Shown here: positions 6,229 through 53,224 of the stretch, one piece after another
Position numbering within the stretch: the stretch's first letter is position 1
Layout: every line of letters starts with the position of its first letter
Origin: Raillietiella orientalis
Taxonomy: Eukaryota
DNA length: 64,000 bases
Direction of reading: 5' to 3'
Assembly: GCA_036172245.1 (NCBI GenBank)
Contig: JAYWIR010000025.1
Span: 1,364,001 to 1,428,000, forward strand
Made by a program: the position numbers and the translations under genes
The notes under the pieces: generated by a model
Seen by the model: the letters and a program-made list of their open reading frames with translations, nothing else
Told to the model about the DNA's origin: nothing
The model's database searches: none

Positions 6229-6259
6229 CTGAGGACTCATATCATGGAATTTTACCGAC

Positions 6260-6263
6260 AAAA
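6260..6263 (-). terminator. Candidate Pol III T4 terminator of copy A
   Basis: First run of four T on the sense strand, a few nt after the terminal ATAGGG...CCCTAT hairpin. Confidence 0.4.
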
Positions 6264-6966
6264 TGCCAAGATAGGGGGCACCCCCGAAGGGGTCCGCCCT
6301 ATGAATCCAGAAAGGCTCGGAGTCCGTTCCTCTCACTTTTGGGGAGAGGGATCGCGCCTCCCACCCTAGTTGTCTCCGAAGGGGAACAAAGAAGGGAATC
6401 TCCTTCCTCATTCTCTCCGGAGGGTCCCCTCAGGAAGGAGGGGTCCTCTCCATTTCAACTTCTCTCGGAAAGGATCCGCTATTAGGAATTTCTTTTACGG
6501 AGGGAACCTGCAAGGGAACCGCTCCTGTTCACTCCTCTGAAGAGAACCCCGAAGGGACGCTTCCGAAACTCAGAAGGGGCGCTGCAGCCACCCGCAGGGG
6601 AATCACTCTCTCTTGCTTCCTTGCACTTCTCTCGAAGAGGCGAAGACTCGGAGGGTCCCCCCCCGCAATAGGGGAGGTCCTCTCCTTCGAACAGCTGGAG
6701 AGGTGCTCGTGAAGGTTCCTGCTCCATCTTGAAACCGAAGGGGTCCCCCGGTGGGGGGGGTCCGCTCTCCGTTGCACGACAGGAAGGGGAACTCCCCACT
6801 CCTTTATTCCCGGGGGGACCCGAAGGTCGACTCCCATTGTTCCGGCCTTCATCGGGGACCTCCGGCTTAATTCACCACCGGTGCCACGCCCGAATGTTTC
6901 GGCCAGCCAGCGCCATTGCAGGAGAAACTCGGAGCCCAACGACGCAGTGGCTCAGTTTCTTCCGGA

Positions 6967-7021
6967 GTATTCGAACCCGCGACGCATGGTGCCACGCGGG
7001 GAAGCCTTAACCACAGAGCCT
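6967..7021 (-). promoter_or_regulatory. Type-2 Pol III internal promoter of copy A (A box 7021-7011, B box 6977-6967)
   Basis: AGGCTCTGTGG resembles TRGCNNARYGG and GGTTCGAATAC resembles GGTTCGANNCC, at tRNA-like spacing. Confidence 0.65.
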
Positions 7022-7622
7022 CCGACGCGGGCAAGGGTGGTGGCTGTTTGATCGTGTCAACTGACTACTGAATTTCCGTAAATAGATATCTGCTGCGAGG
7101 AATACTCTGGAAGTTTCGAAAGTGAAATCATAAAAGAATTGAAATATGAAATAGCGAGAAAACCAAGGAGTGACAGTTCTCAAGAGTTCCTGGATCAAGG
7201 AAAACTTCATTAATTGAATCACTTAAGAGTAATATATATAGAAAGGAGTTTTCATTATTGGAAAGCAAAGAAGGGAATGGAGTGAATAGCCTGAAAGCAA
7301 TGGAGTCCATTTTGATCGGATTCTGTCGTGAACCAATTTCTTACTACGAGGACCCAGAGACATTTTATAGATCTTCAGACCTTAGCTTAGCACCCAACGT
7401 AATAATAAAACCAACACTTGTGTTTCTCCTCATATCAAAAGACACATGAGGAGAAACACCAGATTGTATTTATTAACATATATACTAAACCATAAGCACG
7501 CAATGCAGGGGAGCTCATCATTCGTTGTCTATGCAGTGATCTCGTTCTTAATCTGCCCGTTGGATTTTACTGGTGCTTCCCTATCCTGGTAGAAGCCTAT
7601 CGCTTTTCCCGCTCCCACTTAC

Positions 7623-8150: not shown

Positions 8151-11100
8151 TCTTTCTCAAATCTCCGCTGTATATTCTGAAACGACAGTCCTGCATCATG
8201 GAAGTTCCTCGAACTTACAATAGAGTTCCTTTGTGTAGAGAATCACTGCCTTTCCTGCTTGCTCTTCCTGTGGGAAAAAGTCCTTTCACAACTTTCGCAC
8301 GTCTCTCCATTCCCTCTGATTCCGTAAATTTGAATTCCTCGAAGAGGTCCTTGCTGCTCCTTTTTATTTAGGTTTCTTTCACAATCAGATTTGCTTGCAA
8401 TCTGATGGTAAAAACTTCCGAGTGTCAGCGTTCTTTTTATGTATCCTGTACCTTCTTATGCATCTTTATTTAGGGATTGCGGCTCTCCATGAAGTCCCGA
8501 ATCTTTCGTTGTGCAGATCGCATCCCAATAATCTCCAGATGCCGAGAAAGAATGCCGCCGTTTATGCTGGCGCCTAGCATCTTGCCAGCCGCTCTCGCCA
8601 GGTTCTTAAATTCCGTTCCAGCTATTTGCTGAGATGCAATTCCAGCAGTTTCCCGTTGTAGTGGCCCGGAACGGGCAACTGGACTTTTCGCTGATATTCC
8701 CGTTCGTATTCCTAAAAGTTTCTTCATAGGGCAGAAAACAGCACACTGAGGAACGAGTCGCATCTACCAAACGTGCCGAGGGAACCAGGGACTCCAGGAA
8801 CGAAGTGAGTCCTTATGTCCTTGGGCGGTTGTATGCATATGTATCGCGACGCGCGGTTCCTAAAAGCCCAGATTGAAAGAACGGTTCTCTGAAAACATTT
8901 GGTTACGTGCATAAAATTATTCTTAAGTACTTTGATTTATTCAATGTCTTGCAGCCTGCATCAAGGAGATGGACACTTCACTTCGTTTTTCCCCATAAAG
9001 CAGCAAACTCCGGATGGCGTTGACCCCTGTGGTGGTTTAATTCCAGCTTATGCAAATTTCTTTGAAATTCGGTCCAATTCGCTTCGGATTTCCAGTCGGA
9101 TAGAAGTTTGACTGCATCAGCTTGTGCTCGATTAGACAGCGTTCTCTGCCGCGGCGCGACGATTCCCGTCGGGCAATGAGGGCACTCCAAGAAAGCCCAC
9201 GGAACGTGCATCGCCTCATCTGAATCCATGCGGAATATGAGATTGCCACATATGCATACGTGGATTCTTTGCAACTCTTCGCACATCCATCTGTCGTATG
9301 CAGAGATGCGGTTCACAAATGCAGTGAAACACCCATGGCCGTGCACATAGAAGCTTTCCTTCTCATTAGTGTTATTTAGAGTAGGTCTATAAGCTTTCCT
9401 GGGTGCGCATTTGCAAATTATCGAACATACTCGCATAATTCTAAATACGATTCTGATGTCGCACTGCATCTCTGTACATCCTGCTTTGCAATGTCGAGGT
9501 GGAATAATATGGAATTATTATAAAGTTCCCTTACTCCGATAGAGAATCCTCCGAAGCAAATGATGGTATGCCAACCCATGGGAACCCCCTTTTTTTTCCC
9601 TTTTCATTTCATTTATGCGGCAAACTTGCAGAATGACGCACATGAAAAGCACGTGTGCCACAATCCAAGTCCAAGAGCACGCTTTCCTCAAAGGTTGCTG
9701 CTGCAGTTTGGATGAGCATGTCGTGCGGTGCTCGAAGCAGGGCGATCCACAGAAGTCCGGGAATCTCTTCTCTTCTGGTCGCATGACCCCCTTGCACGCA
9801 CGACCCGCGGGGCGCGCATCTTGATGGTCCTTTAGAGCGTGCTGTTTCCGGTGTGGTCGCAAAGCCGGCCTTTCTTCGCCGTGATTGGAACGGAAACCTG
9901 GCTGTGACTCCTTTTCAGACGGGTGCCGCCACCGCCGTCCTGATGCCTTCACAGCGTCTCCCGTGGCGCACGGAGTGTGAAGTCTGATAAACTTTCCCCC
10001 CACTTCCTGATGCTCGTCCTGACTAGCCGCCTTAGCGTTTGGTGGCGGCGGCGGCGCGCCTATTACAATGCGCGAACACGTAAGATAGCTGATTTTCGAA
10101 AGCATAGCATTTCGAAGGCATCCTCGGTGGGATGCCAGGACAACCCGTTGCCCTGACCAAGCCACGTGTCCAACGGTGTTCGAACCCCTTGTTCCCTAGC
10201 GCGAGGTGACTTTCGCGACCTTGGATCTTAAGGTGCGTTCTTTCTTTATGAGCTACGAGGTTCACCACAGCATCCACCATTTGTGCGCTCCAAAGGCCGA
10301 ATTAAGAGTGGGATGCGAGGAGAGGAAAAACTCCCTAACAGTGAATCACGTGGATGAAGATATTCGGGATTCTGAAGCGGCAAGGATCATCACTTTGCAC
10401 CTTCGTAAGCTTTGTAGCTTTCTGAAGGAGGTCAATACCCGGAGAACTGAACGCGTCACGGTTTACTGAACTCTTGATGCAAGTCGGGCTCAGCTTACGG
10501 CGCAGTATAGGCTTCTCTTTGCCCGAGCGGATGGGATACTTTGCGTCCCAGAATCATTCTGTCTTCAGGATGCATATCGAAGATCTCAGATGCTGCGAGA
10601 TCCGATAGGCGGGCAGACAGATTATCATAACTAAACAGATGAATTAGCTGAACTGGCACATCTGGAAACGGGAGGATGAATTACCCCCCTCCCCCCCCCA
10701 AAAAAAAAAATGCACACTGAAAGTCAGAACTGCCGCGAGATGATACCTCTGGTAGACGTCATACGCTAGTAGTGCGTGCATCCCGGAAGATCTGCGTTGA
10801 AGCCAGCGGCCACACGCATCTGGTCGGCGAGCTGTTCTTGCAATATCCGGTTGCACCGGCCGGCTTGTTTCTTGCAGCTAGCGACAAGGACGCGTATAAA
10901 TAAATAAATAATGCGAAAATGCGGTGTGGGCCATCAGCTCCTACCAAATTCTGGAGGGTTCTGGACGAGCTGGCCAGAAGTCATCTGACTTGCTAGTGAG
11001 GCCCGCCTCGGAAAAGGAGGGGAAAAAGGTAACAAGTAAACAAATGCAGAAAAAAAGTGCATATAACTTTTTATAGGAGGGAGAGGCGCCGGTAACCTCC

Positions 11101-11409
11101 TGGGCCCCGCATGTATGATGCCGCAGGTTGCTGCTCAAATCCTCCAGGCGCGGCGATCTCATTCTACTCAGGAATGAGGTCACGACGAGGAAGGCGCTTC
11201 CCTGACGCTTCGTGCCGCGGAGGCAGCAGGGAGTTGAGATCGCCGGCAGGCAGGAAGCATTGCTCTGCGCACGAGGAGGCACCTCGACACATCTCTGGGG
11301 TGGGTTGTTGTCCTCCTCCGGGAGTGTCAGGATCGTCGAGAAACGCTCCCACGCCCGTCGGAGGGAGGCGCGATCCACAAGCACGAGCAGGAAAGATATC
11401 CACTTCCAG

Positions 11410-11679
11410 GATCACGTTTGGAACCTCCACTGTTGATGTGCACTGGGAAATAAAACTGCATCCAGCCTCTGCATCTCCGAGCTCAAGGCAGCCCGGATGT
11501 CTCTTGCAAAACATCCGGATCGAGGGAAAATCATGCCCTGCGTTGGTCAGCATTGGGCTTCCGGGCATTTTCGGTCAGCATGCTTACAACGACTTGATCC
11601 TCTCTGCCTGTGCGAGCATCACCCGCTGTGCAGAAGGGTGCAGGAGATGGGAATGGTCGCTAGGTTACATCCACCGCAG
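11410..11679 (+). CDS. Candidate plus-strand exon (ITFGTSTVDVHWEIKLHP...WSLGYIHR)
   Basis: TTCCAG acceptor, CAG|GTGAGC donor, 270 nt open, same phase at both ends. No family recognised. Confidence 0.4.
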
Positions 11680-14600
11680 GTGAGCCAAAAGGACGGTCAC
11701 AGAGAGGCATCAGACGCTAACAGAAGCAGGCGAGCACGCGTCCAGGGAACTGGCTCCTCCATTCCCCGCTAAAGGAGTGCCCGATGTGCATGGCAACTGT
11801 TTCAGGATCTCTGGGGACCCAAGAGACGGCTAACTGTCAAGGAAAGTGAAAGTTACCGGAAAGAAGTAGGAGCACATCAGGAAAGAAACGATGTGCTCAA
11901 ACACGCAGTGTTTCCCGGGACGCCTACTGGAAAAATCGGATTGAGACACCGCCTGTGATGGAGGGACTTTGAGAAGTCTCGGAAAAGATTGAAGAGAAGA
12001 AGCAGACGAAGCAAATATCTTCTCCTCTTCTTTTTTTTTTTTTTTTACATTATTGCATCTTTTTTTTTTTTTACTAATTGCATGTGCAAAATTTCTTTAA
12101 AAAGCATTTCGTGGTCCACCGTAGGATACTGCTTTGATGTTTCGTGGAAAACACCATCACATCGATCGTCTGTTATTGTTAAACTTTGGAGGAAAGGGGA
12201 GGATTCGTTCCTTTGAGAATCTTTGTTAGGGAAGGCAGGTCCAGCGAAGAGTCAAATGATTCACATTGTACCACTGAGGTCTCCTCGGGGCACGACTTAA
12301 CTTGGCACGACCCAACGGGTATGCGACTTTCAGTATGAGGTCAATACATCGGAACTTCAAGAAGGTATTCCCTCGGACAACGTGACGTCACAACATCACA
12401 TTACGAAGAACCCCGCATATGCAAAGGAAGCTCCCGCGATTCAAGCTGCCCAGAAACGAAGTTACGAGTTGAGTTTCCTAGAGAAAAGTGTGTTAGAAAG
12501 TGGAAATATTCTGAGCTCTCTGATGTGCGCCAACTGGGTGGTGTGGAGAGATTTACTCCTTCCAGCAGACTACACTCGGGTGGACTGAGGGTGGGCAAAG
12601 ATTTTCAAACCACGTTTTTATTTGGGCACTTCAGTTGGACTCCAGCGTCACGACAACCCGTGCCATGTGACACCCGGAAGGAGCAGGAAAGAAAAGGATG
12701 GAGTGGATGGAGTCGTGCACTTGACTTGAGGCATTTGGGTTCTCGCGGTGGTGCTTCGATGGTTAATGATAGTGTCACATTGGGGTCTTTCAAAAGTTCA
12801 GTTTCCAATGACTTTGATCTGGATGAGATGTTTTACTCGAAGGAGTGTCCGATGCTGCATGGCCAACCATAGTGACATAGCATCGCTATCTGGTGCTATG
12901 GCACCACAGCTGCACATGCAGCAACAGGACCAGCATAAAGTGCATCGATATGGATTATATGAGCACAGCATCACTCAGAGGGTTATGTAACATTTCATTA
13001 CCATGTGTAATACATCACAATTCGCTTTGATTGCTCTTTGTACAATGATATGTAATCTCAGCAACAGATATCAGTAGCTGAATACCATTTAATGGATGAC
13101 AAACTTTTAGTTAATTAATCATCAATTTAATAAGTCATACCGTTCAGTCATTGCTAAAACACAATTTATGCTATTTGTTCAATCCCATCTCCTCTCTTTG
13201 GTTCGCAGTATCGCTTCAGTTATCCACAATCACTTTGTCCGGTGAATGGATAAATTTTTAATGGGAAGCCCCAGGAGGAAACGGCCCCTTTAATAATTTG
13301 CAAACTAGTTCATCCCTGAAGATTCATGTTGTCGCGTCATAACACCAGTGCCCGGTACCCTGGGCAAAAGGACAGTGGAGTTCTATCTTCGGAACGTTGC
13401 TAGGATATTTCGAGAGAATTCGATCATTGACTCAGTTCCGTCGCAGTTTTCTCGCATGGTTATGGATGCAGCTCCTTCATTTCCGTTCTTCGGATTCCGT
13501 TGCAGCTCGCAACTTCCGTTCGTATCACCTGAGAGCCTGGAATGATTTCACAAATAGAGAGTTTCTGTCATTCCCCCAAAGAGACAGTCAGCTCTGCTAC
13601 TAGAGGGCCAACCGGGCCACGACCCGACCACCTATTCCTTCACTACGACCTGTGCCCATGGGTCGGGAAACGAGAGAGATTTCCATCGACCCTGCTGGAA
13701 TTCGCGGTATGCCCACGCGACGAGGGACCTCCGTCTAAGGCGTGGCGTCTTCCAGGAGACTGTACGAAGCCTCCCAGCTGCGGCGCAACATCTCTGCCAA
13801 TTCCTGAAGCCTCTCAGGAATGAGTCCAGGGAGAACCTCACATCGGTGATAAACGCAAACTCATTCGTGGCTATAAGTCACCAAGTGCAAATATGTGACT
13901 TTTGCATACTTTTCTGATCAAAAGAAAATAGGTAACAAAAATCTCATTGGACCTCACGAAAGGAATAAAAAAAAAAAAAAAAAAAAACCCTCAATGAGGA
14001 ATTTTGAGAAGATGCTTTGAAATGTCGGCAGCACCGCACCTTTCAGTAGGAAAATTGGCAAAGCATACGGATATCGGAAAATCAAAGTTCTTGAAACCTG
14101 TTTCTTGCATGCCATCTAACGCACATGACAAACGAAAGAGCTCGCATGCCGACACCTTGGCAACACGAGGATGGTTTGAGGTACGCGAATGCACATCTGC
14201 TCATGTTTTTTGTGACGAAGCTGCCCAGACGATGCTTGCGATGTAATTCTTTCGCTGTTGAGGAACCAAGTCACTTTGCTGTTACGACCGAGCAGCCGCA
14301 TTCTGACACTTCTTTGCGTGGCGACACTGAGAAGTAGAATTTAGGGTTACACACCACAATCCTCCGTTGTTTTAGGACATTACCCACATGCCTGTCAAGT
14401 TTATTATTTTGTTGGGCAGTGAACAATTTCTTTCGACAGCTACTTATTCTCGGGACCTATGGAGTCACGCAAGCATGGATGAATGCTGATCCTGCATCTC
14501 TCACCCAGTGAGAAACAAACCGAAGAATGGCCACGGTCGGTGTCGTCTCTTCGGTTTCTTACGTCGCCTGTTGAACACGCATCGGGAAGTACAAGCGGTA

Positions 14601-17600
14601 CGTTCGAAAGCTCGGAAAGTTCCTCACCTTCCTTTCAGTAAAAACGGGGCTTCAAGAGGTGCTCCAACTTTGGAAGACATATCGGATTCATCTCATTGGA
14701 CTATTAGAAAAATCACATTCGAGCATACACTTGGCTAAAAAAAAATGCGACGTGTTCATAGTTCCTGATGACACAAGAACTGACCATAATTTGAAATGAA
14801 ATAATGAAAGCTGGTTGAAACGAAAGCACCAACAGAGGTAAACCTTGTTATATCTTTCGCATAGTTTTTTTTTTTTTTTTTTTAAGAAAAGTCAACTTGG
14901 GAACAGTGCAACTGCTGTTTACTTGAGATGGAGCATTACGTCAGGTTCCTTCGATCACTCACGAGATACAAATATGCAGTACTCATGGTTGCACTTTGCT
15001 GCTAACTCATCTCCTTTCATCCATCGAAACTGGTAGATCGAAAATAGATTAAAGCAGACACAGGCATCTCTTAGATAAACTAATAATGTGGATTTCTCCA
15101 GGGATGACATCTTCATCAACGCTGCCTTGAATCATGAGCTTCACAAGATAGCAAGGTTCGAAGGCATTGCCTAGGTCGAAAAATTTTGTGCGTCTGCTGA
15201 TACCGAATATCTGAAACATTATTTAAGAAATCCAGTTTATCTCAGTAAATTTGCCACTAATAAGATTCTGTCACGAAAGATTCAGACAAAAGTTCGTTTT
15301 CCGACCATGGTCCCTTGCTTTTGGAACTTGGAACCTCAGCAATTGGGACTTCAGCATTTCTTAGGTGTCAAGAGTTCACTTGTACTGAATGCTAATTTGA
15401 GAAGAACAAATTAATAAATAAACATAGATCCATGCGCAGATTATCTAAAGACGATCATCTAAAATCACCAGCTCCAGGATGCTGCCACCTTTTGCGAATA
15501 GACCAAACAAAGTGCCACAGCGTACTTGGAAATGTGGTCATAATTAATGTTAAGAAGAACTATGTTCATGAAACCGAGCACAGAATAATTTATTCGTCCG
15601 ATGCCATTAATTAACGTGTGTTTCCGTTAACGCTTGCAGAGTTCCCGAGAGCATTATTCTATTCACTTGGCTTTTAGATTGCCTGAAGCTTCTATCTGCT
15701 TCCTTTTGCGTCAAAAGTCGGTTGCGATGAAAAAGAACAATTGAATTCGACGAAAAGGAATCCCGTCGGTATGCCCTTCTCTCTCACGGACAAATTTGCT
15801 GCTTGGTCCAGATGTAAGCTTCATAGGAACGGTGTAAAATATGGATTTTTATTATTCTGTGCATTTTCAGTTGCTTTCCTCGTATGAGTGCGTTCAGGAT
15901 AATGATGACGGATTTACAGGAACAAACAACCACCAAATTAGAAAAATTTTCTTCTGCTTCCGAAACCAGACTCTGGTTTGCATAAATTCTGGATGGTTTC
16001 GGCTAGAGAGAGGCGGCTAAAAGGAGATGCGCGTCCCTGAATTGCATCATCTGATGAGTTCGACATTGTGTTTCGATTTCAGTAACTTCAGCGAACAGCA
16101 TACTGTTAGTTGACCACAGGTGAGCCACAGTTCTGGAATTTCTCCCTCAGTTTACGAATGCTGGTGGTTTATTGCATCCTCGACAAGCAAACCCAAAGCG
16201 GTTTGAGCCCTTTGTTTCATTGCCTGCATCAAATGAGTGACGGAGTCCCTTGGCTCAGGAAATATGTGAAACTGCAGGCCGGGAAAGGGGAAAAAAAAAA
16301 ATTCATGTTTATGGCCGTACACCGCTGTTGCGTGCGTGTGTCAAGTGACCACCGACCACTCAGCAAACTTCGGCCGAGTGGTCACTCCTTTCCTCAAAAG
16401 TGAAGTGCATTTTCACTCTCCTGCCGTTGATCAAACGAATATCGAAGGAGTGGTGATACACAGTGATGTTGAATTTGGGTTTGGAAATCAAGACTGCCGG
16501 TTCCTGCTTGGAGATGTGAATCAAAAAGTATGCAGCAGAAATATGTTCCCAAGAAAGGTACGACCACGAAGACATAGCTGAAGCAGCAGTGCAATAATTT
16601 AAAAATATGTAACGATGGCCTAAGGCCGTGGCAAAGCTAAAACTCACCAAAATATTATTTCGTATTTCATGCTTCCAAATAACACAATGAACCTTATAAA
16701 GGGAGAAGAAATGGAAGTTCAATTCCCGGAAGTCATGATTCAAATATCAGTGTGATTATTTGATAACATGATATCATCATTTAGAGACATCAGGCTTGCA
16801 GCGAGGCAGTTTCAGAGAATAATGTCCTCTGTCAATTTTTTTTTTTTTTTTTTTTTTTAAACTCCTCCTCCACCCCCGAAAAGCTGTTTTCTTTTTGGTC
16901 TATTAGAGTTATTCAAATTTAGAAGAACGAAAGATGAAAGGTGATTCGTTTTCTGAACACGTTACCTGCATGAAAGGAACTTGTCTTGCTTTGAACACTG
17001 GATCCAAAGTACCACCACGTGGCAGACGAAGAAGTAAACCGTACAAAATTCCAAGCTCCTCAACTGTGAAAGGAATCCATTTTGAGAAGACTTTTGAAGA
17101 AGAAGAAAAAAAGTGCATTTGTGAATGAAACTGAGACGGAAAAAGGCAGCATATGCAATGCACAGAATCTTCGGTTTCAGCAGCGACTAGAGAGGATTCA
17201 TCTTCTAAAATTCGCAGTGGGAAACTCCGAATTAATAATAAAATCTCCGAATGAAAGAATTTAACGATGCTCCGAGTTAGCAATGGGTGCCTTTTTGGAT
17301 TTCCTCTCAAATTTTCATCCGAAGGATGCAGGAAAGTTTCCCACTCATAGCTTTGCGGAGAAAGAATTAGGAATTTCCATTCAAAAGACGTTTCAAATGA
17401 GCACAATGCATCTCTGTGTGTTTATGGTAACCCTGAACGACCTTACACTTCATTGGGATTACTGCCTTCTGCCCATTTACTGCTCCGTTTGATTTAAATA
17501 ACGTCAGCATTTACTGGAAAAGAAAAACTCCGTTTCGAAATGTTGTAAGGCATCTTACTGACTAAAATGGTTCTCTTGGATGATGGGTATCTCGCAAAAA

Positions 17601-41500: not shown

Positions 41501-42439
41501 ACTGTTTTCTGTTCTGAGAATAACAAGCCCGGGACTTGCTGGGACTCCCAGAGTTATGAGTTTCCAAGTTTTAATTTATATCCTTCAGCGACGCAGATTC
41601 AGAAGCGACTAATAAATTTCCAATCAGCTGTACGAAGCGGCGATGGACGTAGCAACAGACGACGTGCGCTTCTTCGCCCATAAAGTAGGGCTGGCCATTA
41701 AAATTCTCTGGAAGATGCAAATATCAAAGGCTTTGGTCTGAGAAAGAAAGATGTTTCGTGAGAGATGAAGGCTATGAAAATGTGGATTGAGGACGATGCC
41801 AGTGAAACAAGCACGTAGACGCATCGCGGAATCTGCCTCGAAACATCTGTATGTGCACAGAACACAACGCGGAGGTCCTTGAGATTTTCGGGATTGATGG
41901 ACGCGGCGTAGCAGGGCATGTCTGCTTTCTTAGCCACCATTCATGAGGAAGCTATGCTCCAGGGATTCCAGGAGTGACTGAGCTCAAGATGTAAACACCT
42001 CTGCAACGGAATGAATGACCAACTGGCGCGTTTCCCGAGATTTTTTCAGCATTTTTTCAACGTGGTCCATGCACACTGTGAAGACAGCACTCCTTTTTCA
42101 AAAAGGCTTTTTCTTTTTGGGTAATTTTTGCTCTGAATGACCACTGAGCCATGTCAGCTGCTTCCTAGAATTATCAATTCCTCCTATCCGTTATTTTGAA
42201 TACGATACTTTCAATATGATCATGAAATGATCATATTCAAAGTATCCGATGAGACGAGATGCCATCTGAAGATGAAATGATATTCATGTCCAGTCGGGAA
42301 GGATGTTTCCATATAACCTCACATAAGCAAAATTTCCAGTGTACAAGGCACATTTCAAAGGTAATGGCCGATCGGATGTAAAGAACGAATAAGAGAACCA
42401 AAAAAGTATCCGTGGTTCTAAGCACATGGCATCCCCATG

Positions 42440-42718
42440 TCATTTTTCTACTTAGTCCCCATTTTTCCCCAAACACGTTTGACCGCATGGAAGGAGTTTT
42501 TTTTCAACCCTCTGCATCGAATTCCGCCGCCTGGGCGTCCAGCCAGTTCAGCAGCACCGCAGTTTTCCACTCCCCACTTCCCCCTTCGAATCGCCGAGCC
42601 ACCTCTTTAGGTGCACGAAGACGTGGTAGTCACTGAGCGCGAGGTCAGGGCCGGGTGGTCAAAAACTTCATATTTGAATTTCCGAATTGTCTGGAATGTG
42701 CGGACAGCAGTGTGTGGG
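42440..42718 (-). pseudogene. Inverted duplicate of the mariner transposase 3' end (left arm of the fold-back)
   Basis: Reverse complement of 42877-43155 carrying the same frameshifts and stops. Confidence 0.88.
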
Positions 42719-43155
42719 ACCAAAAGGGTGTGCTTTCGGTGTACTTTGTGGAGCCTGGAACAACCATCATTTCGCAATTCTACTGTGTAGAGACTTTCAA
42801 CACGGCGGCGTGCCATTGAGAACCGACGTCGTGGAATGCTGACATCAGGAATTGGTCGCCCTCACGACAACGCGCGCCCACACGCTGCTGTCCGCACATT
42901 CCAGACAATTCGGAAATTCAAATATGAAGTTTTTGACCACCCGGCCCTGACCTCGCGCTCAGTGACTACCACGTCTTCGTGCACCTAAAGAGGTGGCTCG
43001 GCGATTCGAAGGGGGAAGTGGGGAGTGGAAAACTGCGGTGCTGCTGAACTGGCTGGACGCCCAGGCGGCGGAATTCGATGCAGAGGGTTGAAAAAAAACT
43101 CCTTCCATGCGGTCAAACGTGTTTGGGAAAAAATGGGGACTAAGTAGAAAAATGA
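42715..43155 (+). pseudogene. Mariner (Tc1/mariner superfamily, DD34D-type) transposase, C-terminal half, decayed
   Basis: Across frameshifts it reads WDQKGVLSVYFVEPGTTIISQFYC / RRAIENRRRGMLTSGIGRPHDNARPHAAVRTFQTIRKFKYEVFDHPA / PDLALSDYHVFVHLKRWL / RFE..KTAVLLNWLDAQAAEFDAEG* / CLGKNGD*VEK*. This matches the mariner HDNARPH, YSPDLAPSDY and GDYVEK motifs; the RRAI-NRRRGML segment resembles the irritans subfamily. Confidence 0.92.
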
Positions 43156-44747
43156 CATGGGGATGCCATGTGCTTAGAACCACGGATACTTTTTTGGTTC
43201 TCTTATTCGTTCTTTACATCCGATCGGCCATTACCTTTGAAATGTGCCTTTCAATATTCCATGCGTAGTATTCAGTGTTATTACTGTGATACTCCTTGAT
43301 ATTTTTGCTGTGAAGTCAAGGACGCATACCCGATAGTTTTGCTGCTTTCACCTTATTCTTAAAAAGATTTCGCAGTATTGAAAAAAGACAGTGGAGACCA
43401 CCACCAAAGAAAGAAACGTGTTTCAAACGAAAAGAATACGATGCTCCTCTTGGAGAAGCGTTCCTGGGATGAGTAAGGACAGAAACGAACGAATTGCTTG
43501 TCCAGCACCACTAGGACATTTATTGCTCAGCAAACGGACAGCAAAACCACGCCATGAGAATGCTTTCTTTTGCAATTTTCCCCAAATGGAGAGGAGAATA
43601 GGGACTTGATGAATCTTTTCTTGAAACCGTGTATTGGTCCACTCGACCCGTTTTGCTTGCGTGCCTCCATTTTTTGGTGCTGTTAATGGACTTGGAAGCC
43701 ATATTTCCGCTCCCGAAAATTCATCGATTAATTAAACTACATGGAACGATTTAACTACTGCAAGCAGCTTACTGCCATCCTTTTTCGGTCATCCTTTTTT
43801 TCCCCCGCTGTTCTGCAACACTAGTGACTTCCTTTCTCTTTCTGGAAGAGCTCTCATCCTCTCCCATCTGCTCCGAATCCTTTGGAAATTCGCTTTCATC
43901 TTCCGTCGCACGAACTTTTCCCCTAGATACGGACTTTCTTCTAAAATAAGTTTCCTGAGCATGCAATTAATCACCCTGCCTGATTACGCACGTAAAGCAA
44001 CGAGTTTCTCGACTTGATTCTTTCGCTGCTGGGTCATCAAACTTTTTAAATGATTAATCAGGTTATTTGAAAATTGTTATCTTTAGGAAAGATCCGTCCG
44101 CGTCTTCGTTGCGGGTTCGTTTGAGGGCAAAAGTCCCCACCCGAGCTTTCATGTTCTTCCTTGGAAGAGATGGTTGCAGTTCACGAGCTTCGATTACCCG
44201 CAAAGTTTCGAGGACACGTGCGGATGAATTTATTGATCTATTGTCCTTATTTCTCCGAAACTCATAGAGTCGCGCTCCTCCCTGCTTTGCATTTTATCCG
44301 ATTCATTTCTGATCATCAGTCCTCTCAGTGTAACTGCTGGGAACCCCCATCAGTTCTTGTTGGTGTTTTGCTACTCGTCCTACAAAAAAAGCAAATCGTC
44401 TCTCTCCATCCCTACATCCCTCCTTGCAGCGAAGTGGGCGAACTTTTCCGAAACGCCCCAAGGGATCAAATAGAAATCATCAAATCAGGTTTTTCTTTTT
44501 CTTCCCAGGATGGCATTCCAAAAATCTCCTCAACTGACATCTGTAGCTTCCAAAGCACAATTTCCTCCTAAGAATTCCGTAAGCCTTGAGTGCGTGTCGG
44601 TGAACCCACTGCTCTCTTCTACCTCCTTGCAGCCACCTTTTGGCATTGCGAGCGTTGGATATCGCGCTGAAATGAATAACAGTGGCAAAGTTTTCCAATT
44701 AAAAGTACTCTGTGTTCAAGCAAACACCTCATGAATAGAGACTTCAT

Positions 44748-45450
44748 GCGTCGGAGGCCGTGTGGTTACGGTGGTCTCCGCGCGTGGCGCCACCATGCGT
44801 CGTGGGTTCGAATACTCCGAAGAAATCGACTCAGTGCGTCGTGGGTCCCGAGTTCAACCCACAAGATGACGCTGGTTGGCCTACATTTATCCGGGTGCGG
44901 CACTAGCAGCGGCTGAAACCGGATGCCCCCCGATGAGAGCCGGGACAAATGGGAGTCGACCTCCGGGTACTTACAGGAATCGAGGAGTGGGAGCTCCCCT
45001 CTGGTTGTGAAGGAGTGGACCCTCATTCCGGGGGGGCATCCACGTCGTACTGATGGAGTAGGTGTTCGCCACCACCTCTGCAGAGAGTGCAGAGAAGGAA
45101 CCGATCCCTTCGTGGAAGCTGCGTCCTTCTGAATTTCGGAAACATCCCTTCCGGGTTCTCTTCAGAGGAGTAAAAACAGGATGGGATCCCTTCCGAGTTC
45201 CCTTCAGAGAAGAGAAACTGGAGCGGACCCCTCCAGGGGTCTCTTCGGAGAGAATAAGAAAGATTTCCCTTCGGGATTCCCCTTCGGAGACAACCAGGGT
45301 GGAGGTGATCCCCATTTCCGGGGATCCCTCCTCAGGCGTGAGAGGAACGGACTCCGAGTCCTTCCTGGATTCATAGGAGGACTCCTCCCGGGGTACTCCC
45401 TATATTGAAGACTACTCACCCTCGGGTGGCGTGGAACCGTGTCGATAAAC
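44748..45450 (+). ncRNA. tRNA-headed, GC-rich structured Pol III-type element, copy B (SINE-like or multicopy ncRNA)
   Basis: Begins GCGTCGGAGGCCGTGTGGTTACGG...GGGTTCGAATACTCC and is colinear with the reverse complement of 6250-7028. Hairpins include CTC-TTCG-GAG and TCCC-TTCG-GGA. No TTTT until 45492-45495. Confidence 0.7.
44755..44815 (+). promoter_or_regulatory. Type-2 Pol III internal promoter of copy B (A box 44755-44765, B box 44805-44815)
   Basis: AGGCCGTGTGG and GGTTCGAATAC; the B box is identical to that of copy A. Confidence 0.65.
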
Positions 45451-46126: not shown

Positions 46127-48492
46127 TTTGAATAAGAATAGGGAATATTTTGGTTTATGTTAGGATACGGATATTTTTCCCTACAGAAGAACGGTCACCA
46201 ATGCTCTGCTTGCTTTGCATCTCCGTAACCTTAGAAACCTTCCATAAAAACGTCCACGAACTTCAGAAGCTTCGCACAAACCATGGAAACTTTCATTTCT
46301 AGGAAGTCTTAATTGAGATTTCCCTTATTGGAAAGGTGCGTTTCTACTTGGGGATAGAGCATCATCAAACTCATTGAAGCTGATGACTTGGTTTAAACTT
46401 TCCATTGATAGTTCGTTTTCCGTCCCACAAAGTCATATCCTATGTAGTTCGTGCGTTTGTAGTTCGAAAACTGAGATTATCTTGATCCCCATCCTATCCT
46501 CAGTTGCTGAGCTTGCCAGCAGAGCCTGCATTCCGAAACAGTTTGCTCTTTGAAGGCTGCGGACGAAGAGCTTTAAAGGGAAACAATTTTCCACATTCGA
46601 CATTTTCCCTTTGATGATTCTGCATCCTGAATTTTCACCATTTACCAAGCAGTTCCCTAAAAGCTTCACCTTCAACGCTGCTTTTTTTTTTTTTTTTTAT
46701 TCCCCTTGATTTCTGTCCTGAGTGTTCGATGCGAATTTTGCAAAATGTAGCCCGGAAGGTTTTTCGCAATTTTCGTTTGGACACTTTGGGAAGCGAGGTT
46801 TCCGCTTCCGGAGTCCCTGCATCGAAAAGCAAGAAACGAATTCGGAAAAGTACATAAGAGCACGCTGATAAAGTGTACGCAAACAGATGCTATTGGTGCG
46901 TGTATGTGTATTCATATGTGTACGTTCCACATGGTTCTGTTCCTACAGATCAGGAAACCCCCCCACTCAGCTTTCGTGTTGACATAAATACGGGATTTCA
47001 TGTTCCAGAGACTCTTGGAACTTCTACACGCACTCTTCTTGTCTGTGGTGCACCTTTGGGTATTTGGCGCGCCACATCAAAAGCTGTTTATCCCCTGCGA
47101 GTCCTTCTTTTCCTGTGTAATTTGATTTTCTTATCCATGTTTGGGTCTTGATCACTTCCTAACCCGGAGAATGCAGCTCCTTCGGACATTCATTTCAATA
47201 ACACGGTGTTTCTGTGTGTTCCATGCAAGCGCGCGTTGCTGTAACTTGGCAACAGGTCTTACGAACTTGTCAGATGACGTGCAGAGTGCTATCGATTTTC
47301 CGTTTCATGAGTTTCTGTCAGTGGACATTCTTCTGAATCGAAGGCTGAAAGGAAATGCTCCCACCGCTTTCCAATAGGAAAGGGAAGAACGGATTTCAAG
47401 TAGAAGTCGGACCAGGAACTTCTATCCCTTCAAGAGGCACACCGGGGTGTGCAAACCCAAAGTCACTGAAATTTTTTTTTTTTTCCCCGCTCAGGGTACC
47501 CTCTGCTGCTCACACGAATCATTCAAAGTTGGGTTCCATCTTTGTTTTTGGTTTTCCCAGAATAATACATTATCCTCTCGATTTCCTCCTTCATCACGAA
47601 GTGGCAAAGCAGTGATCATGCAGAATCCACGAGGATTTCGGAGAATTCCGTGGAATTCATTTTCTAGAAATCCTGCCGGTTCACCGTGGTTTCCGCTATT
47701 TAAGGCTCTTTCCAACCTGTTGGACTCTCAGTTTGCCAGCTTGGAGTTTACCACCAGTTTACCAGACTGGGAGAAAACTGCCTGAAGATCTCGCTTTTCC
47801 CTGAATCGAGGGGTGAGCTCGGCGGCCACGGTGTGAATACCTTTCGTGAGCTTTTCCTCACCACACTGTCTATGAGCTGGCTAGAGAAGCTGAGCTTTTT
47901 TTTTTTTTTCCTCTCAAAGAGGAATCGTGCTGACCACTGAAGGTGCAATGTCGAGACGGCCTCCATCGTTTCAGTATGGGGAAAGCCCAAGCGAGAGTTC
48001 TGAACAGTGAAGGAAATTATGGAAATCAGCAACCTCTCTTGCTGGCTCCTCCTTTCCAACATTGAGAGCAAATTTTGTAATCCAGGTGCACGAAAGTGAG
48101 CAAAACTCAGCTGGATGCCAATGATAGGTAGATATAGTTCTTCACTCGATGCCTGGGATTTTTTTTCAAACCGATCTCCCCTTCCACTATCAAGCCCTAA
48201 GGTCAGTTTGATGCCGGAGCAACAGAGTGAGCGCACACTTCTTGGACAAAATCGCGCGATCCTGCAAAACGCTGCTCGAATGCGTAAACACGGAGAGCAA
48301 CAGTTTGAGGAGCACCGTGGTAACTGCAAGAAACGCCCGCCTCGGAGCGAGAGGAGCGTGTTGCCAAGGAGAGGGAAAGAGCAAAGATGAATGGACTTTG
48401 GAAAGCATCGAGATATGATCAAGATGTGTTCCGCTGTGTGTTCGCAGAGTTCCTCGAACGTCCTGTCCCCCATTTTGATTGGGAGCAAAGAT

Positions 48493-48518
48493 ACACACAC
48501 ACACACACACACACACAC
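48493..48518. repeat. (AC)13 microsatellite
   Basis: Read directly from the sequence. Confidence 0.95.
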
Positions 48519-51414
48519 CCGTAACTTGCCGCCTCGTGCACGCCTCCCGAGAGCGCCTGCTGCGGACAGAGTAGGAATTTGATGAGGGAACGCTGCAAAG
48601 CAAAGCAAACTGAAGCCTCTTACATTCTCTGGAATATAAATCAGCGGTGATCCATAAGTCGAGGAGCAACTTTCGGCCGGCAATCAAACACAAATGATTT
48701 ACCGATTGATTTAAACGCTGGCGCTTTGGGGAGATGCGCGGAACCCTTCCGTGGGTACGAATCCAGGCCCAGGGAGAAAGAATAAACAAATCGTAGATTA
48801 TGGACTGGACAAGCTTGCACTCTCGCGATGAGTTTTTTTTTTTTTCCCGCGCTTCCAAGTCACCACGAGAGAGAGATTCTCCAGCCTCGCGCTTTCCGAT
48901 GCCGACGGAGCTGCTCATGAATCCGAAAAATTTTGAAATTGGAAAGCTGAAAAATAATCTCTTGAATTTAGGGCTGTGTCATGACACTCCGCGTCCGCTT
49001 GGTTCCGAATCATTCCCGCGAAGAACTCCCACTAATGGGAATCTAATGACTAAATATTTTCCACTTCACAACATGGGAATTACGTTTAGGGAAACTGCCA
49101 TTTTAGAGAGAAAAGATTTGTTTTGCCAATCACGAATGCTGCAAGTCCGTAGCAGTTTTCGAGAGAGCGATTGGAACACCTCCGCACTTCTAAGGCTCGC
49201 AGGAAGCAGGGAAAACGAAGACAAAAGCGGAGGGGGGGGGGGACTGCCGGACTCGTGACTCGAAGTCCTCTGGCATCTGTTGCAAGCACCAGAGGCATCA
49301 GTGCTTATCAAGCCGGGCGAAAAGGAACTCACCAGACGAACGTGTTGTAATTTCATCCTTAATTCGTGTTCTCCAAAGCCGGAGAGACGCGCGGGAAAAA
49401 CTTCTGCATCTCGTGAAACGAGATGCTGAGGATGCTGAAGCAGCGCATGAAGCGAGCTGCGCCGAGGCGCCACGCTGTAAAAACCGGGTGCGAAGGAGTG
49501 CAATCTCGGAGCCATTAAAATTCATTGAGAATTTGGACGGAAAATTTCGAAGCGTTCGAGTTCGCAGTTGCTGGACTGCGAGCGTGGAACCCTAATCTGC
49601 CTAATGGGAGCTGAAATTCGCCAGCGCCATCAACGGCGACGTGGGTTGCGCTTGTGGTCCTCGCCCCCCCTGCTAACGGGACAGCGCTCGATGAGTAATG
49701 GATTATTTTTCATCCGAATGGGGAGGGGGGGCACCCGAAAACAACTAGGCTGGCATTTAAACCCGGCATCGAGATCTTTGTGACGAAACAAGTGGATGCA
49801 CCACCCTTTCGAGATGAAAGCCCGGGACTGGAGGTGGTTCAGCGTGGACCACGGAAGCGGATGGGTGCAGCCGCCGAGATCGCGCGTTTGTGAATTCCGA
49901 ACGACACCGTCGTGCCGGTGTTCCTGAAGAATTTTAACTCGCACCATTAATTCTGGAATCTTTGCTGAAACGACTTTCAAAGTGAATAAACTTGACAAAT
50001 TCGGAATTTATCGCTCCCGTGCGGAACCCATGCATCTAAAACGAAAAGTGCCGTTAGCGAAAATGCAAAAGGCATTCCTCCATCCACATTATACAAACCC
50101 ATTTCCTTCATTAGCAAGCATCGATCTTTTCTTGGCCTCTGACGATCTCAGTGTGGCTAATCCTGACTTTGCCATTCGTTTGCGTCGCTATCTTCAGCTA
50201 AACGGGAGCGACGTGCTCTCCTCAACATGTCCGTGAAAAAAATCGCCCTATTCCACGTGGAATGAAAGAGCCACAGGAAGAGGGATCCTCCAGATATGAG
50301 CCGGTATAAAAATCCTAGTCTTCTCAAGCAAGGATTTCCTTTTTTTCTTCCCGCTGTTCTTTTAGCAACTCATAACTGGAAACGGCTCCACCAAATTAAT
50401 CATCCTCGAAACTTATCTGTTGTCAAATCTTGTTAGCACACAGATACGGAAATCAGGGTTTGCGAAACTTTATAGTTCTTGGCACGTTTCAAAACAATCG
50501 CCATGAAGAATTTTTGCGCTTCCAGGATCCACCATGCCCTGGATTAGCCAACAGTCGAACATTTATCTCGGGAAACGGTATCCCTTGCAAGAGCTCCGAA
50601 TTCCATACAGCTCGGATGGAAATTCCAGAAAAAGCAGCAACTGCTAAGCGACTGCTCTTGGCACCTCACGATGCTATTTTTCTAGCCATGAAATAAATAA
50701 GCATGTAGCCCCCTCCACAATCAGCATAGAAGCTGCCTTGCATATTACCGCAAGCTTTGCATTTCGATTGGGATATGAAGATTCCAGATGCGCGCGCTCT
50801 TGAAGGTCCAGAGGTTTTCTGATCGGTCCCAATGAGGAAAGTTCTGCTCCGGCGTCTGCACTTCACAAAACTCCCTCTCTCCGCTGACGCACAAAACAAA
50901 GACATCCAAGACTTGACGAGTCACTTGAAAAGCATAGAGTACGTGACAATTTATATAGCTGGAAGAAATGTGGTTGAGATGGACGAAATGTGGGGAAGAC
51001 GCCGGCAAGCCACGAGTGAATGATTTTTTTCGATTCCTAGCAAACCGAGGAGATTGTTTTCCGTTCTTTCTTCCTTCCATCTCCTGGGATTAGGTAATTG
51101 GCTCTGCTCTTCTAGCGAGCTCAAGTAGTTGCTGAATCTGTTCCGACTCCTCGCGGATCTCACTTCACTTCTAGCTGGTACGAAAGCAGCGGCGGGCTTC
51201 TGAGTTGGCATCCTGCGGGCCATGGTGTTACGCAGCAAGTTTTCGGCCATAGGGTTCGGAAACACTCACACTCTTCGTGCGTCTGAATTTGCCTTCGAAG
51301 ACTTCGATCTCGTGTGATCCAAGGTGTGACTTTCTCATGACACTTTAAAGAGTTCAAACAAATCAGGAGACCGGAATAAGAAAGTCCTCAAAACAAGAAG
51401 AAAGGAAAAAAAAA

Positions 51415-51432: not shown

Positions 51433-53169
51433 TTTCTTTTTTTAGAACTGGCCTCTCGCAGGAATATTCCTCCACTGAAGAAATATCCTTAGATTCCGAA
51501 TGATCAAGGATTCGTTTTCCCAACCGCTGGATGAAGAAAATTTGCGACTTTACTTCAAGTAACTTCACTCTGTGGGACGGACCTATTAATTAAAAAATAA
51601 AAAAATAAGCGTCAGTGGCATGCTGGTTGCATACCTATAAAAAAGCAGCTGAGCAATGAATCTCTCTGCACTTTAAATCAGTGCAAACTTTATTGGATGA
51701 GGGCTACTACTATCTCCTCAGAATCTTTTATGGTTATGTACTTCTGTTGCCGAATCTAAAATGGCGGTGAATTTCATCTCCACTTACCAAGGAGCTTGCT
51801 TAGGCTGTTTGGTGTGTTTTTTTTTTTTTTTTTCAAGACGTATGCACTTACCTACTCGGAGAGTAAATAAGATAAGACAGGGCAGTCAGTTCTCTCTGCT
51901 TGTTTTACAGTGAAGTCAGCCCAACTCGTGGTTGGTTTCCTTCTCTTGAATGTTTGCATTCTTTGTGAACGATAATAACTACAGTGTCCAGCTATCATCT
52001 TGTTTGCTCATTAAAGTTCAGCTGAAAGTTCCTCGTCTTGAGAGGGCATGAAGAGAAAAGAAACGACAAATGAGTTCTTAGGAAATGGAAAACTCAATCT
52101 TCATAGTGAATTATTTAGAGGTGGAGTCCCTCCCCCCCCCCCCCAAGAGTTAGGGAACGTTCGTTCTTTGTGAACGAAAAAAAGCAAACGCTTGGTCCGA
52201 AGGGTGGGATCGAGAAGCTTTGTGTGCTCCCTGACCAATCGTGAGTCAAACTCATCTGCTGAAACAAAGCCAAAACACAAGCCGTTCCTTGAACTCAGTT
52301 CCTCGAGTCATCAACTCGAAAGCTTTTCCTCGAGTGCAATCCTTTGCTGCTCTTCTTGCTGCAACTATCAAGGGATCCTTTTTCGATGTCTTTGCTTTAA
52401 AGACCAGCTTAATGTTCACATGTGTGACGTGATCTTCACCAAATTTTCACTCTTCTTTCGGAACGGTTTCGATGGTCAGAATTCCTCTCCAGCCCATGAT
52501 AGTTTGCAGGCCGAAAGCGAATCAAAGAGGATGCTGTTATTCCTTCTTGAACGTATGCCTTTGGAGCAGCTCTTCTGCCCGCTGAAATATCAGATAGCAT
52601 GCGGAGCTTCAGGTGGATGCTAATTATTTTCTTCCTTTACAACACCAAAACTTCCAATGTATTCTAAGATGGTCTAGGGCAAGAGCGACTCTGATTTCAG
52701 TCCAAGAGAAACACGCCAAAACAACCTACAGCGTGGTCCAGCAGTTATCCCGTGAGGGTCCTACATCTCCTGTGGACCATGATCAACCAGCGGCTTCCAA
52801 ATCTCTTGCCCCTCTCCTCCGGCAAAGAGAAAAGCGCACCTTCCGTCTGCCGTACCCTGAGGCGGCGCTCTTGTAGCACAGCTGTGTCCCGAACTGCCAC
52901 GCAACGTTCGAGGAGGAGGATGCATCCTGGTGAGCGCTCCCCTCTCCCGGGAGAGACTCTCGAGCTTAGCCTTGCTCTTTTTCCTCACCCGGGAGTTCCA
53001 GGAGCATCTCCCAAAGTTCCGCCTGTGAAATTGCAACTGCCGCCACTGGCCGCCACCACCTGCAGAGTTCGCCTGCAGCCTGTATTCTCGACCCGGCGCC
53101 CAATGTGTCAGCAGGAGGGTAACGGGTGCTCCATGACGGGACAGAGCGAATTAATTCTCGTGGCAGTGT

Positions 53170-53224
53170 GACCGCTGCTCGGTGGAATACACCGAGCAGC
53201 GGTGTATTCCACCGAGCAGCGGTC
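53170..53224. repeat. Perfect 25-bp inverted repeat with 5-nt loop, containing a nested alternative hairpin
   Basis: GACCGCTGCTCGGTGGAATACACCG-AGCAG-CGGTGTATTCCACCGAGCAGCGGTC. Confidence 0.9.

Follow-up and report, generated by a model that had tools for sequence, protein, structure and literature searches.

We analyzed a 64,000-nucleotide stretch of contig JAYWIR010000025.1 of Raillietiella orientalis (positions 1,364,001 to 1,428,000 of the forward strand; hereafter the window, whose first letter is position 1), and found two copies of a discrete repeat, 38 kb apart and in opposite orientations. The two are probably old members of a single family of non-autonomous retroposons, of the short interspersed element (SINE) type derived from a transfer RNA (tRNA), that inserted independently and are decaying neutrally. 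The element would combine a long body of quasi-oligomeric structure with a 3' stem-loop in place of a tail. To judge from its sequence it behaves like a SINE, and we regard its membership among the SINEs as provisional. Both loci are most likely dead copies without a function of their own. The evidence comes directly from the two copies: they form a dispersed repeat with a head in the register of a tRNA, a body made of hairpin units, no coding capacity and a neutral-looking divergence. The limits of the copies, determined with blastn and nhmmer and from the sequence, are as follows.

6267-7028, minus strand (the sense strand of this copy): repeat copy 1, running from GCGTCGG to CCCTATCTTG (762 nt)
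44748-45407, plus strand: repeat copy 2 (660 nt)

The two copies were colinear and considerably diverged. In an alignment with MAFFT from the shared start to the shared 3' end, 463 columns were identical, 172 were mismatches and 152 contained gaps. The identity was 72.9% (463 of 635 aligned columns), and the Kimura two-parameter (K2P) distance was 0.345, with 104 transitions to 68 transversions. There were 17 gap events, including gaps of 62, 33, 14 and 11 nt. Comparison of the copies with blastn gave two colinear blocks, one in the head (74.6% identity over 256 nt) and one in the tail (68.7% over 326 nt), separated by a middle that was poorly alignable. These results confirm the proposal of a first-pass annotation of the window that it holds two colinear, diverged copies of about 0.7-0.8 kb with large indels. 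The outer coordinates given there, 6250 and 45450, did not stand, as the two copies cease to be homologous at about 6267 and 45407, and copy 1 lies on the minus strand.

We compared each copy together with 3 kb of flanking sequence on both sides. Homology began in both at the first base of GCGTCGG and stopped at about CCCTAT[C/A]TTG, and the flanks on both sides were unrelated. The start GCGTCGGAGGC is common to the two copies; both it and the B-box-like motif GGTTCGAATAC were found in each, as had been reported. There was no third copy in the window, as assessed by blastn at E ≤ 1 and by an nhmmer profile made from the two sequences. The discrete edges, the unrelated flanks and the lack of a third copy in the window together indicate a discrete dispersed repeat. 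Because the flanks are unrelated, we rejected a segmental duplication, and we rejected a protein-coding reading because the open reading frames (ORFs) of the copies are not conserved as protein. The formal criteria of SINEBase, according to its published description, include an interspersed repeat of <1 kb and an identity to a tRNA of at least 60% across 60 nt or more (PMC3531059). At 762 and 660 nt, the copies are short (<1 kb), interspersed and non-tandem.

At the 5' end of the element we located the following features.

6949-7028, minus strand: tRNA-related head of copy 1 (element nt 1-80), matching bacterial tRNA-Asp(GTC)
44748-44833, plus strand: tRNA-related head of copy 2, which compared to copy 1 has two insertions of 3 nt, matching bacterial tRNA-Cys
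7011-7021, minus strand: A-box-like motif AGGCTCTGTGG of copy 1 (element nt 8-18), read from the sequence
6967-6977, minus strand: B-box-like motif GGTTCGAATAC of copy 1, from a motif search
44805-44815, plus strand: B-box-like motif GGTTCGAATAC of copy 2, from a motif search

We compared the first 80-86 nt of the copies, and 300 shuffles of each, with 29 distinct tRNAs of one bacterial genome that served as stand-ins for the host's own tRNAs. The head of copy 1 was identical to bacterial tRNA-Asp(GTC) in 49 of 70 columns (70%), with 7 gap columns, and none of the 300 shuffles reached this score. Nucleotides 4-68 of copy 1 aligned with nt 4-71 of the tRNA in a 1:1 register, covering nearly its whole length. 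Because nt 4 of the element corresponds to nt 4 of the tRNA, the repeat starts at tRNA position 1, and an edge at the 5' end of a tRNA is what retroposition of an RNA polymerase III (Pol III) transcript would give. The head of copy 2 shared 48 of 78 columns (62%) with bacterial tRNA-Cys; 18 columns were gaps, and its score was reached by 10 of the 300 shuffles. Measured against these bacterial stand-ins, the identity to a tRNA was above the SINEBase value for copy 1 and, numerically, also for copy 2. When 80-nt segments were slid over the remainder of both copies, the tRNA scores stayed at background on both strands, and only nt 1-80 rose above it. The element therefore has a single tRNA-related unit, and a second unit, or a dimeric head, was rejected.

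Within the element, the A-box-like motif occupies nt 8-18, and the B-box-like motif is at about nt 52-62 in copy 1 and nt 58-68 in copy 2. Motifs of the B-box-like class were no commoner in the window than by chance (4, compared to 4.83 expected). A more specific arrangement, in which a D-loop-like GTGGTT is followed 20-48 nt on by GGTTCRA, was limited within the window to the two copies (2 occurrences, compared to 0.19 expected).

The remainder of the element is a body of small hairpins that ends in a terminal stem-loop. The corresponding features are listed here together with the first run of four T residues (T4) on the sense strand past copy 1.

6361-6557, minus strand: array of degenerate ~40-nt hairpin units of copy 1, from the unit model described below and a listing of units
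45144-45350, plus strand: array of five ~40-nt hairpin units of copy 2, units 1 and 2 closely alike, from the unit model and a listing
6271-6302, minus strand: terminal hairpin of copy 1, ATAGGG...CCCTAT with a UUCG loop (-21 kcal/mol, z -3.05; 3 of 200 shuffles as good)
45373-45403, plus strand: terminal hairpin of copy 2, degraded (-12.5 kcal/mol, z -0.60; 51 of 200 shuffles as good)
6260-6263, minus strand: first sense-strand TTTT past copy 1, in the flank a few nt beyond the shared homology, a possible Pol III stop

In the body, degenerate ~40-nt units follow one another in tandem, each composed of two short hairpin halves of ~20 nt with CTTCGG loops. We built a hidden Markov model (HMM) from the five clearest ~40-nt units of copy 2. 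In copy 1 it gave matches, mostly weak, that were ~40 nt apart, at element positions 472, 512, 552, 592, 632, 681 and 736. Elsewhere in the window there were only scattered matches with E > 0.4. The loop sequence CTTCGG occurred five times on the sense strand of copy 1 and three times on that of copy 2, compared to 0.52 and 0.30 in dinucleotide shuffles, and its complement CCGAAG was found 0 times and once, respectively. Two of the larger gaps between the copies are associated with the array, the 33-nt gap inside it and the 62-nt gap directly upstream. The tandem array was not strictly periodic: the autocorrelation peaked at 41, 82-84 and 118-119 nt with z values of 2-3, and the 95th percentile for random segments of the window was 3.39. 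Tandem Repeats Finder (TRF) detected only a 13-nt repeat, present twice, in the body of copy 2 (45262-45287). Because the autocorrelation did not exceed that of the controls, the unit structure rests on the unit HMM and on inspection. The ~40-nt unit structure is real and strongly degraded.

The terminal ATAGG...CCTAT hairpin that had been reported near the 3' end is present in both copies and has decayed in copy 2. Such an element might have spread as follows. A master copy elsewhere in the genome would be transcribed by Pol III from the A/B-box promoter of the tRNA-derived head. The transcript would pass through the T4-free body with its variable number of ~40-nt hairpin units, giving a 'quasi-oligomer', and would end after the 3' stem-loop. 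The RNA would then be reverse-transcribed and inserted by a partner long interspersed element (LINE) of the 'stringent' kind, one that recognizes the 3' stem-loop and not a poly(A) tail. Recognition of the stem-loop by a stringent-type LINE would explain the missing poly(A) tail. The presence of two copies in one 64-kb window suggests an abundant family. We infer Pol III transcription, LINE-mediated insertion and a high copy number for the family as a whole.

We looked for related sequences in several collections. There were no matches to Rfam 15 at the gathering score in the 64-kb window. At E ≤ 10 the copies had 12 and 2 matches, all far below the gathering score and mutually unrelated. No described structured RNA family thus matches the element, in line with the first-pass annotation, which had recognized none. 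Exact-pattern scans with four conserved blocks gave no matches in metagenome contigs or in viral contigs, and a single one in prokaryote-genome contigs. In this contig (L001, from a Lewinellaceae metagenome-assembled genome), positions 1201-1226 carry an exact 26-nt block of the hairpin unit inside a bacterial ORF, with no other similarity. The match is due to chance; 25 specified bases are not always specific at that database size. At the protein level, none of 70 candidates scored in a homologue search with the sense ORF at 6529-6951. The antisense ORF at 44971-45399 had two matches among representative proteins, both to unrelated tandem-repeat proteins. Six sequence blocks of the element retrieved nothing relevant from the full text of the literature, only unrelated primer and test strings.

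The first-pass annotation had described the element as highly structured and had taken its conserved blocks and its lack of T4 as signs of selection on an RNA, perhaps a long Pol III transcript. We found that a high degree of structure was not a robust property. For the whole copies, the z-scores of the minimum free energy (MFE) on the sense strand were -0.86 (copy 1) and -3.87 (copy 2), and those of the antisense strands were -1.75 and -2.48. The consensus fold of the tail was better than that of column-shuffled alignments (z -5.4 sense, -2.6 antisense), with a structure conservation index (SCI) of only 0.55, and the head had no conserved fold (z -0.57). We attribute the tail consensus fold to inherited hairpins and not to selection.

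We also determined how base pairs have fared since the copies diverged. A structure was predicted from one copy and the substitutions of the other copy were scored against it, a test that has low power with two sequences. The share of substituted pairs that were still paired was 35-38% for the sense and 27-39% for the antisense strand; the counts were 48-62 broken, 30-34 kept and 3-8 double changes. Pair retention was about equal to what transitions alone would give. The CTTCGG loops did not fare better: one of seven aligned sites was intact in both copies, and the other six were mutated in one copy or the other. With pairs broken on the sense strand as often as on the antisense strand, the loops mutated and the copy 2 hairpin degraded, the proposal of a selected RNA or long Pol III non-coding RNA found no support in the two copies.

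The identical blocks and the lack of T4 are both real, and as signs of selection both are statistically weak. The longest identical runs between the copies were 21, 19, 18, 15 and 15 nt. Given the identity of the two copies, a longest run of 21 nt is in line with expectation (P = 0.18), and only the number of runs of at least 15 nt was high (5 observed, 1.4 expected under a uniform model; P = 0.007), the expectation of the uniform model being depressed by the barely alignable middle. Within the element there was no TTTT on the sense strand of either copy, and there were two AAAA (T4 on the antisense strand) in each. The copies lie in T4-free stretches of 801 and 872 nt, which rank 5th and 2nd in length among those on the respective strands of the window, such that comparable stretches exist elsewhere in it. 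Dinucleotide shuffles of copy 1 lacked TTTT with a probability of 0.029, and those of copy 2 with a probability of 0.268. The difference between 0 sense and 2 antisense T4 per copy is weak evidence that would fit a Pol III-transcribed ancestor. There was no sign of selection on an RNA in the two copies, and their pattern of divergence is neutral-looking. The identical blocks, the T4-free sense strand and the many hairpins can be accounted for by common descent from a hairpin-rich master copy and by the composition of the element.

An atypical SINE, the other possibility raised by the first-pass annotation, fits the tRNA-related head at the 5' edge of the repeat, the dispersed copies on opposite strands, the unrelated flanks and the lack of a conserved ORF. 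Several observations weigh against a SINE-type origin. The tRNA match is only borderline for copy 2 (10 of 300 shuffles), and the reference set consisted of 29 bacterial stand-in tRNAs. Neither ARAGORN nor Rfam RF00005, even at E ≤ 10, recognized the head of either copy as a tRNA; ARAGORN found no tRNA genes in the 64-kb window. The A-box consensus is TRGCNNAGTGG and the B-box consensus is GGTTCGANNCC. Both copies differ from the former at two specified positions and from the latter at the position of tRNA C61, and these deviations fall at the tRNA-invariant positions U8, A14 and C61. An internal Pol III promoter in the head would be non-canonical but plausible as judged from its sequence. There is no A-rich or simple-repeat 3' tail: what follows CCCTAT[C/A]TTG is unrelated and non-repetitive, and TRF finds nothing there. 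There is likewise no target-site duplication, as candidates anchored at the boundaries were no better than shuffles (P = 0.26 and 0.92). The absence of both, in both copies, had been noted earlier and is confirmed here; at a decay of ~17% per copy, a short target-site duplication could have been lost. Only two copies were seen, with no third in the window or in metagenome, viral or prokaryote-genome contigs. No partner LINE was seen either, and nhmmer with the element tail gave no other match in the window. Lastly, 660-762 nt is at or beyond the range of 75-662 nt given for the 175 families in the SINEBase description (PMC3531059).

Some of these observations would also suit a different kind of dispersed repeat, for example a non-autonomous DNA transposon, a Helitron or Helentron derivative, or a fragment of a larger composite element, whose tRNA-like 5' end was incidental or captured and in which Pol III played no part. 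We consider this unlikely. Such an origin is consistent with the joint absence of a tail and a target-site duplication and with the presence of hairpins at both ends of the element. The element tail also matches its own opposite strand (nhmmer, E 1.9e-6), an observation that can be counted for such a repeat and that is expected of palindromic units. Helentron-associated elements of the DINE-1 type are non-coding, are <1 kb, and have central short tandem units, a 3' stem-loop and no obvious target-site duplication. The element resembles them in all of these respects, in particular in its internal short tandem units and 3' stem-loop, and differs in lacking subterminal inverted repeats and in having a 5' end that is tRNA-like and in tRNA register. 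The A and B boxes are off consensus, and in the SINEBase description such boxes are deemed only indicative (PMC3531059). Against an origin of this kind, the edge of the repeat lies exactly at tRNA position 1 and the similarity extends over the whole tRNA length, which would be hard to obtain by chance. There are also no terminal inverted repeats, the best end-to-end inverted match being 6-7 nt (P = 0.84 and 0.38). Helitrons carry 5'-TC and CTRR-3' ends, and the ends of the element are unlike this signature. Without terminal inverted repeats and with ends that do not fit, a terminal-inverted-repeat (TIR) element, a miniature inverted-repeat transposable element (MITE) or a Helitron was rejected as the identity of the element.

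The remaining explanations involve a functional RNA. Both loci could have arisen as retro-pseudogenes from a functional gene elsewhere for a single long Pol III RNA, led by a tRNA-like sequence and carrying an array of UUCG-capped hairpins, an explanation that we regard as improbable. The family would in that case serve the cell, despite the two dead copies described here. The enrichment of CTTCGG on the sense strand only (5 and 3, compared to 0.52 and 0.30 expected), the stronger tail consensus fold on that strand (z -5.4 compared to -2.6) and its freedom from T4 all point in this direction. However, the same features follow from hairpin units inherited from any master copy, the SCI of the tail is only 0.55, no Rfam family matches, and nothing in two copies separates a functional master from a selfish one. 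In a broader form of the idea, which we judge very improbable, a functional ~0.75-kb Pol III RNA with a tRNA-like leader, UUCG-capped hairpin modules and a terminal stem-loop would be the ancestor of the family or still be one of its members, and the two loci would again be retro-pseudogenes. Such an RNA would act, for example, as a multivalent protein-binding scaffold, and it would represent an unusually long, modular class of Pol III RNA. The least probable explanation, to which we give hardly any credence, is that each of the two loci is a functional gene in its own right and belongs to an undescribed multi-copy family of long Pol III non-coding RNAs. The start and the B-box-like motif common to both copies, the excess of identical runs of at least 15 nt (5 compared to 1.4 expected) and the probability of 0.029 for a T4-free copy 1 would speak for it. 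Set against these are a divergence of 27% with 17 indels, including the 62- and 33-nt gaps, and broken pairs (48-62) that outnumber kept ones (30-34), with the sense strand no better than the antisense. In addition, six of seven CTTCGG loops have been lost in one copy or the other, the copy 2 terminal hairpin and the copy 1 MFE (z -0.86) are no better than shuffles, and the head lacks a conserved fold (z -0.57).

We compared the element with known systems. A tRNA head joined to a body of unknown origin is the commonest SINE architecture in SINEBase, whose description covers 175 families of 75-662 nt and treats A and B boxes as no more than indicative (PMC3531059). Like tRNA-derived SINEs, the element has a 5'-terminal tRNA-related head with A/B-box-like motifs and a non-coding body, is <1 kb, and is dispersed in either orientation, with copies that differ by internal deletions or duplications. 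Unlike typical members of that group, it is without a simple-repeat or A-rich tail and without a detectable target-site duplication, and it is longer than any of the 175 consensus sequences (75-662 nt) covered by the SINEBase description (PMC3531059). The nearest architectural analogue, likened by description only, is CHRS/CHR-2; CHRS is described as a quasi-oligomeric SINE in which a degenerate motif of ~20 nt is repeated >10 times (PMC3531059). The body of the present element is likewise built from a short degenerate tandem motif whose number of units varies by copy, whereas its units are ~40 nt, consisting of two ~20-nt hairpin halves. The host setting also differs. Mammalian genomes are CpG-depleted, unlike the window, in which the ratio of observed to expected (o/e) CpG is 0.86.

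The 3' end has a parallel in the eel pair UnaSINE1/UnaL2, described as a SINE that is mobilized by a stringent-type LINE via a shared 3' stem-loop (PMC1636434, PMC4176376). The element is similar in that a 3'-terminal stem-loop takes the place of a poly(A) tail, and different in that no partner LINE sharing its 3' end was found in the window. Short tandem repeats also close the UnaL2 tail and are missing at the 3' end of the element.

The window surrounding the copies has a GC content of about 44% and a CpG o/e of 0.86. None of its 309 stop-to-stop ORFs of at least 70 amino acids (22 + 148 + 139) reached the Pfam cut-off, and there were three sub-threshold matches. From its sequence, the window looks like non-coding DNA of a weakly methylated eukaryote, such as would make up a gene desert or else a very long intron. 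Three 2-kb stretches (10001-12000, 48001-50000 and 52001-54000) have a GC content of 0.50-0.53, compared to about 0.44 elsewhere, and a CpG o/e near 1. These raised-GC stretches carry long stop-free frames, up to 311 amino acids at 47748-48683, without a Pfam domain.

Two other features point to mobile sequences in the window. At 42345-43250, 1.5 kb upstream of copy 2, there is a near-perfect foldback with two arms of 374 nt, which are 158 nt apart and 99% complementary. Short ORFs in or beside its right arm (42791-42988 and 42937-43047) read HDNARPH and PDLALSDYHVFVHLK, which we take to be mariner/Tc1 transposase motifs. There was no Pfam match to these short ORF fragments. The foldback may be a young, mariner-derived deletion derivative with long TIRs. 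There are also long homopolymer runs, an A21 at 13967-13987, a T23 at 16836-16858 and a T17 at 46680-46700. They may be the tails of retroposed sequences of the poly(A) type, in which case LINE machinery of the relaxed type would also have been active in the genome.

The practical outcome is negative with respect to a selected RNA, as the cues that had suggested one are accounted for by descent from a hairpin-rich master copy together with composition. The element would be of wider interest only if a conserved, expressed master locus exists. It is mildly notable in exceeding the length range of the SINE families in SINEBase as of 2012. If the two copies do belong to a SINE-type family, the result is a routine repeat annotation, that of a long tRNA-headed family with a quasi-oligomeric hairpin body and no tail, and the family would help in masking and might provide a phylogenetic marker in the host.

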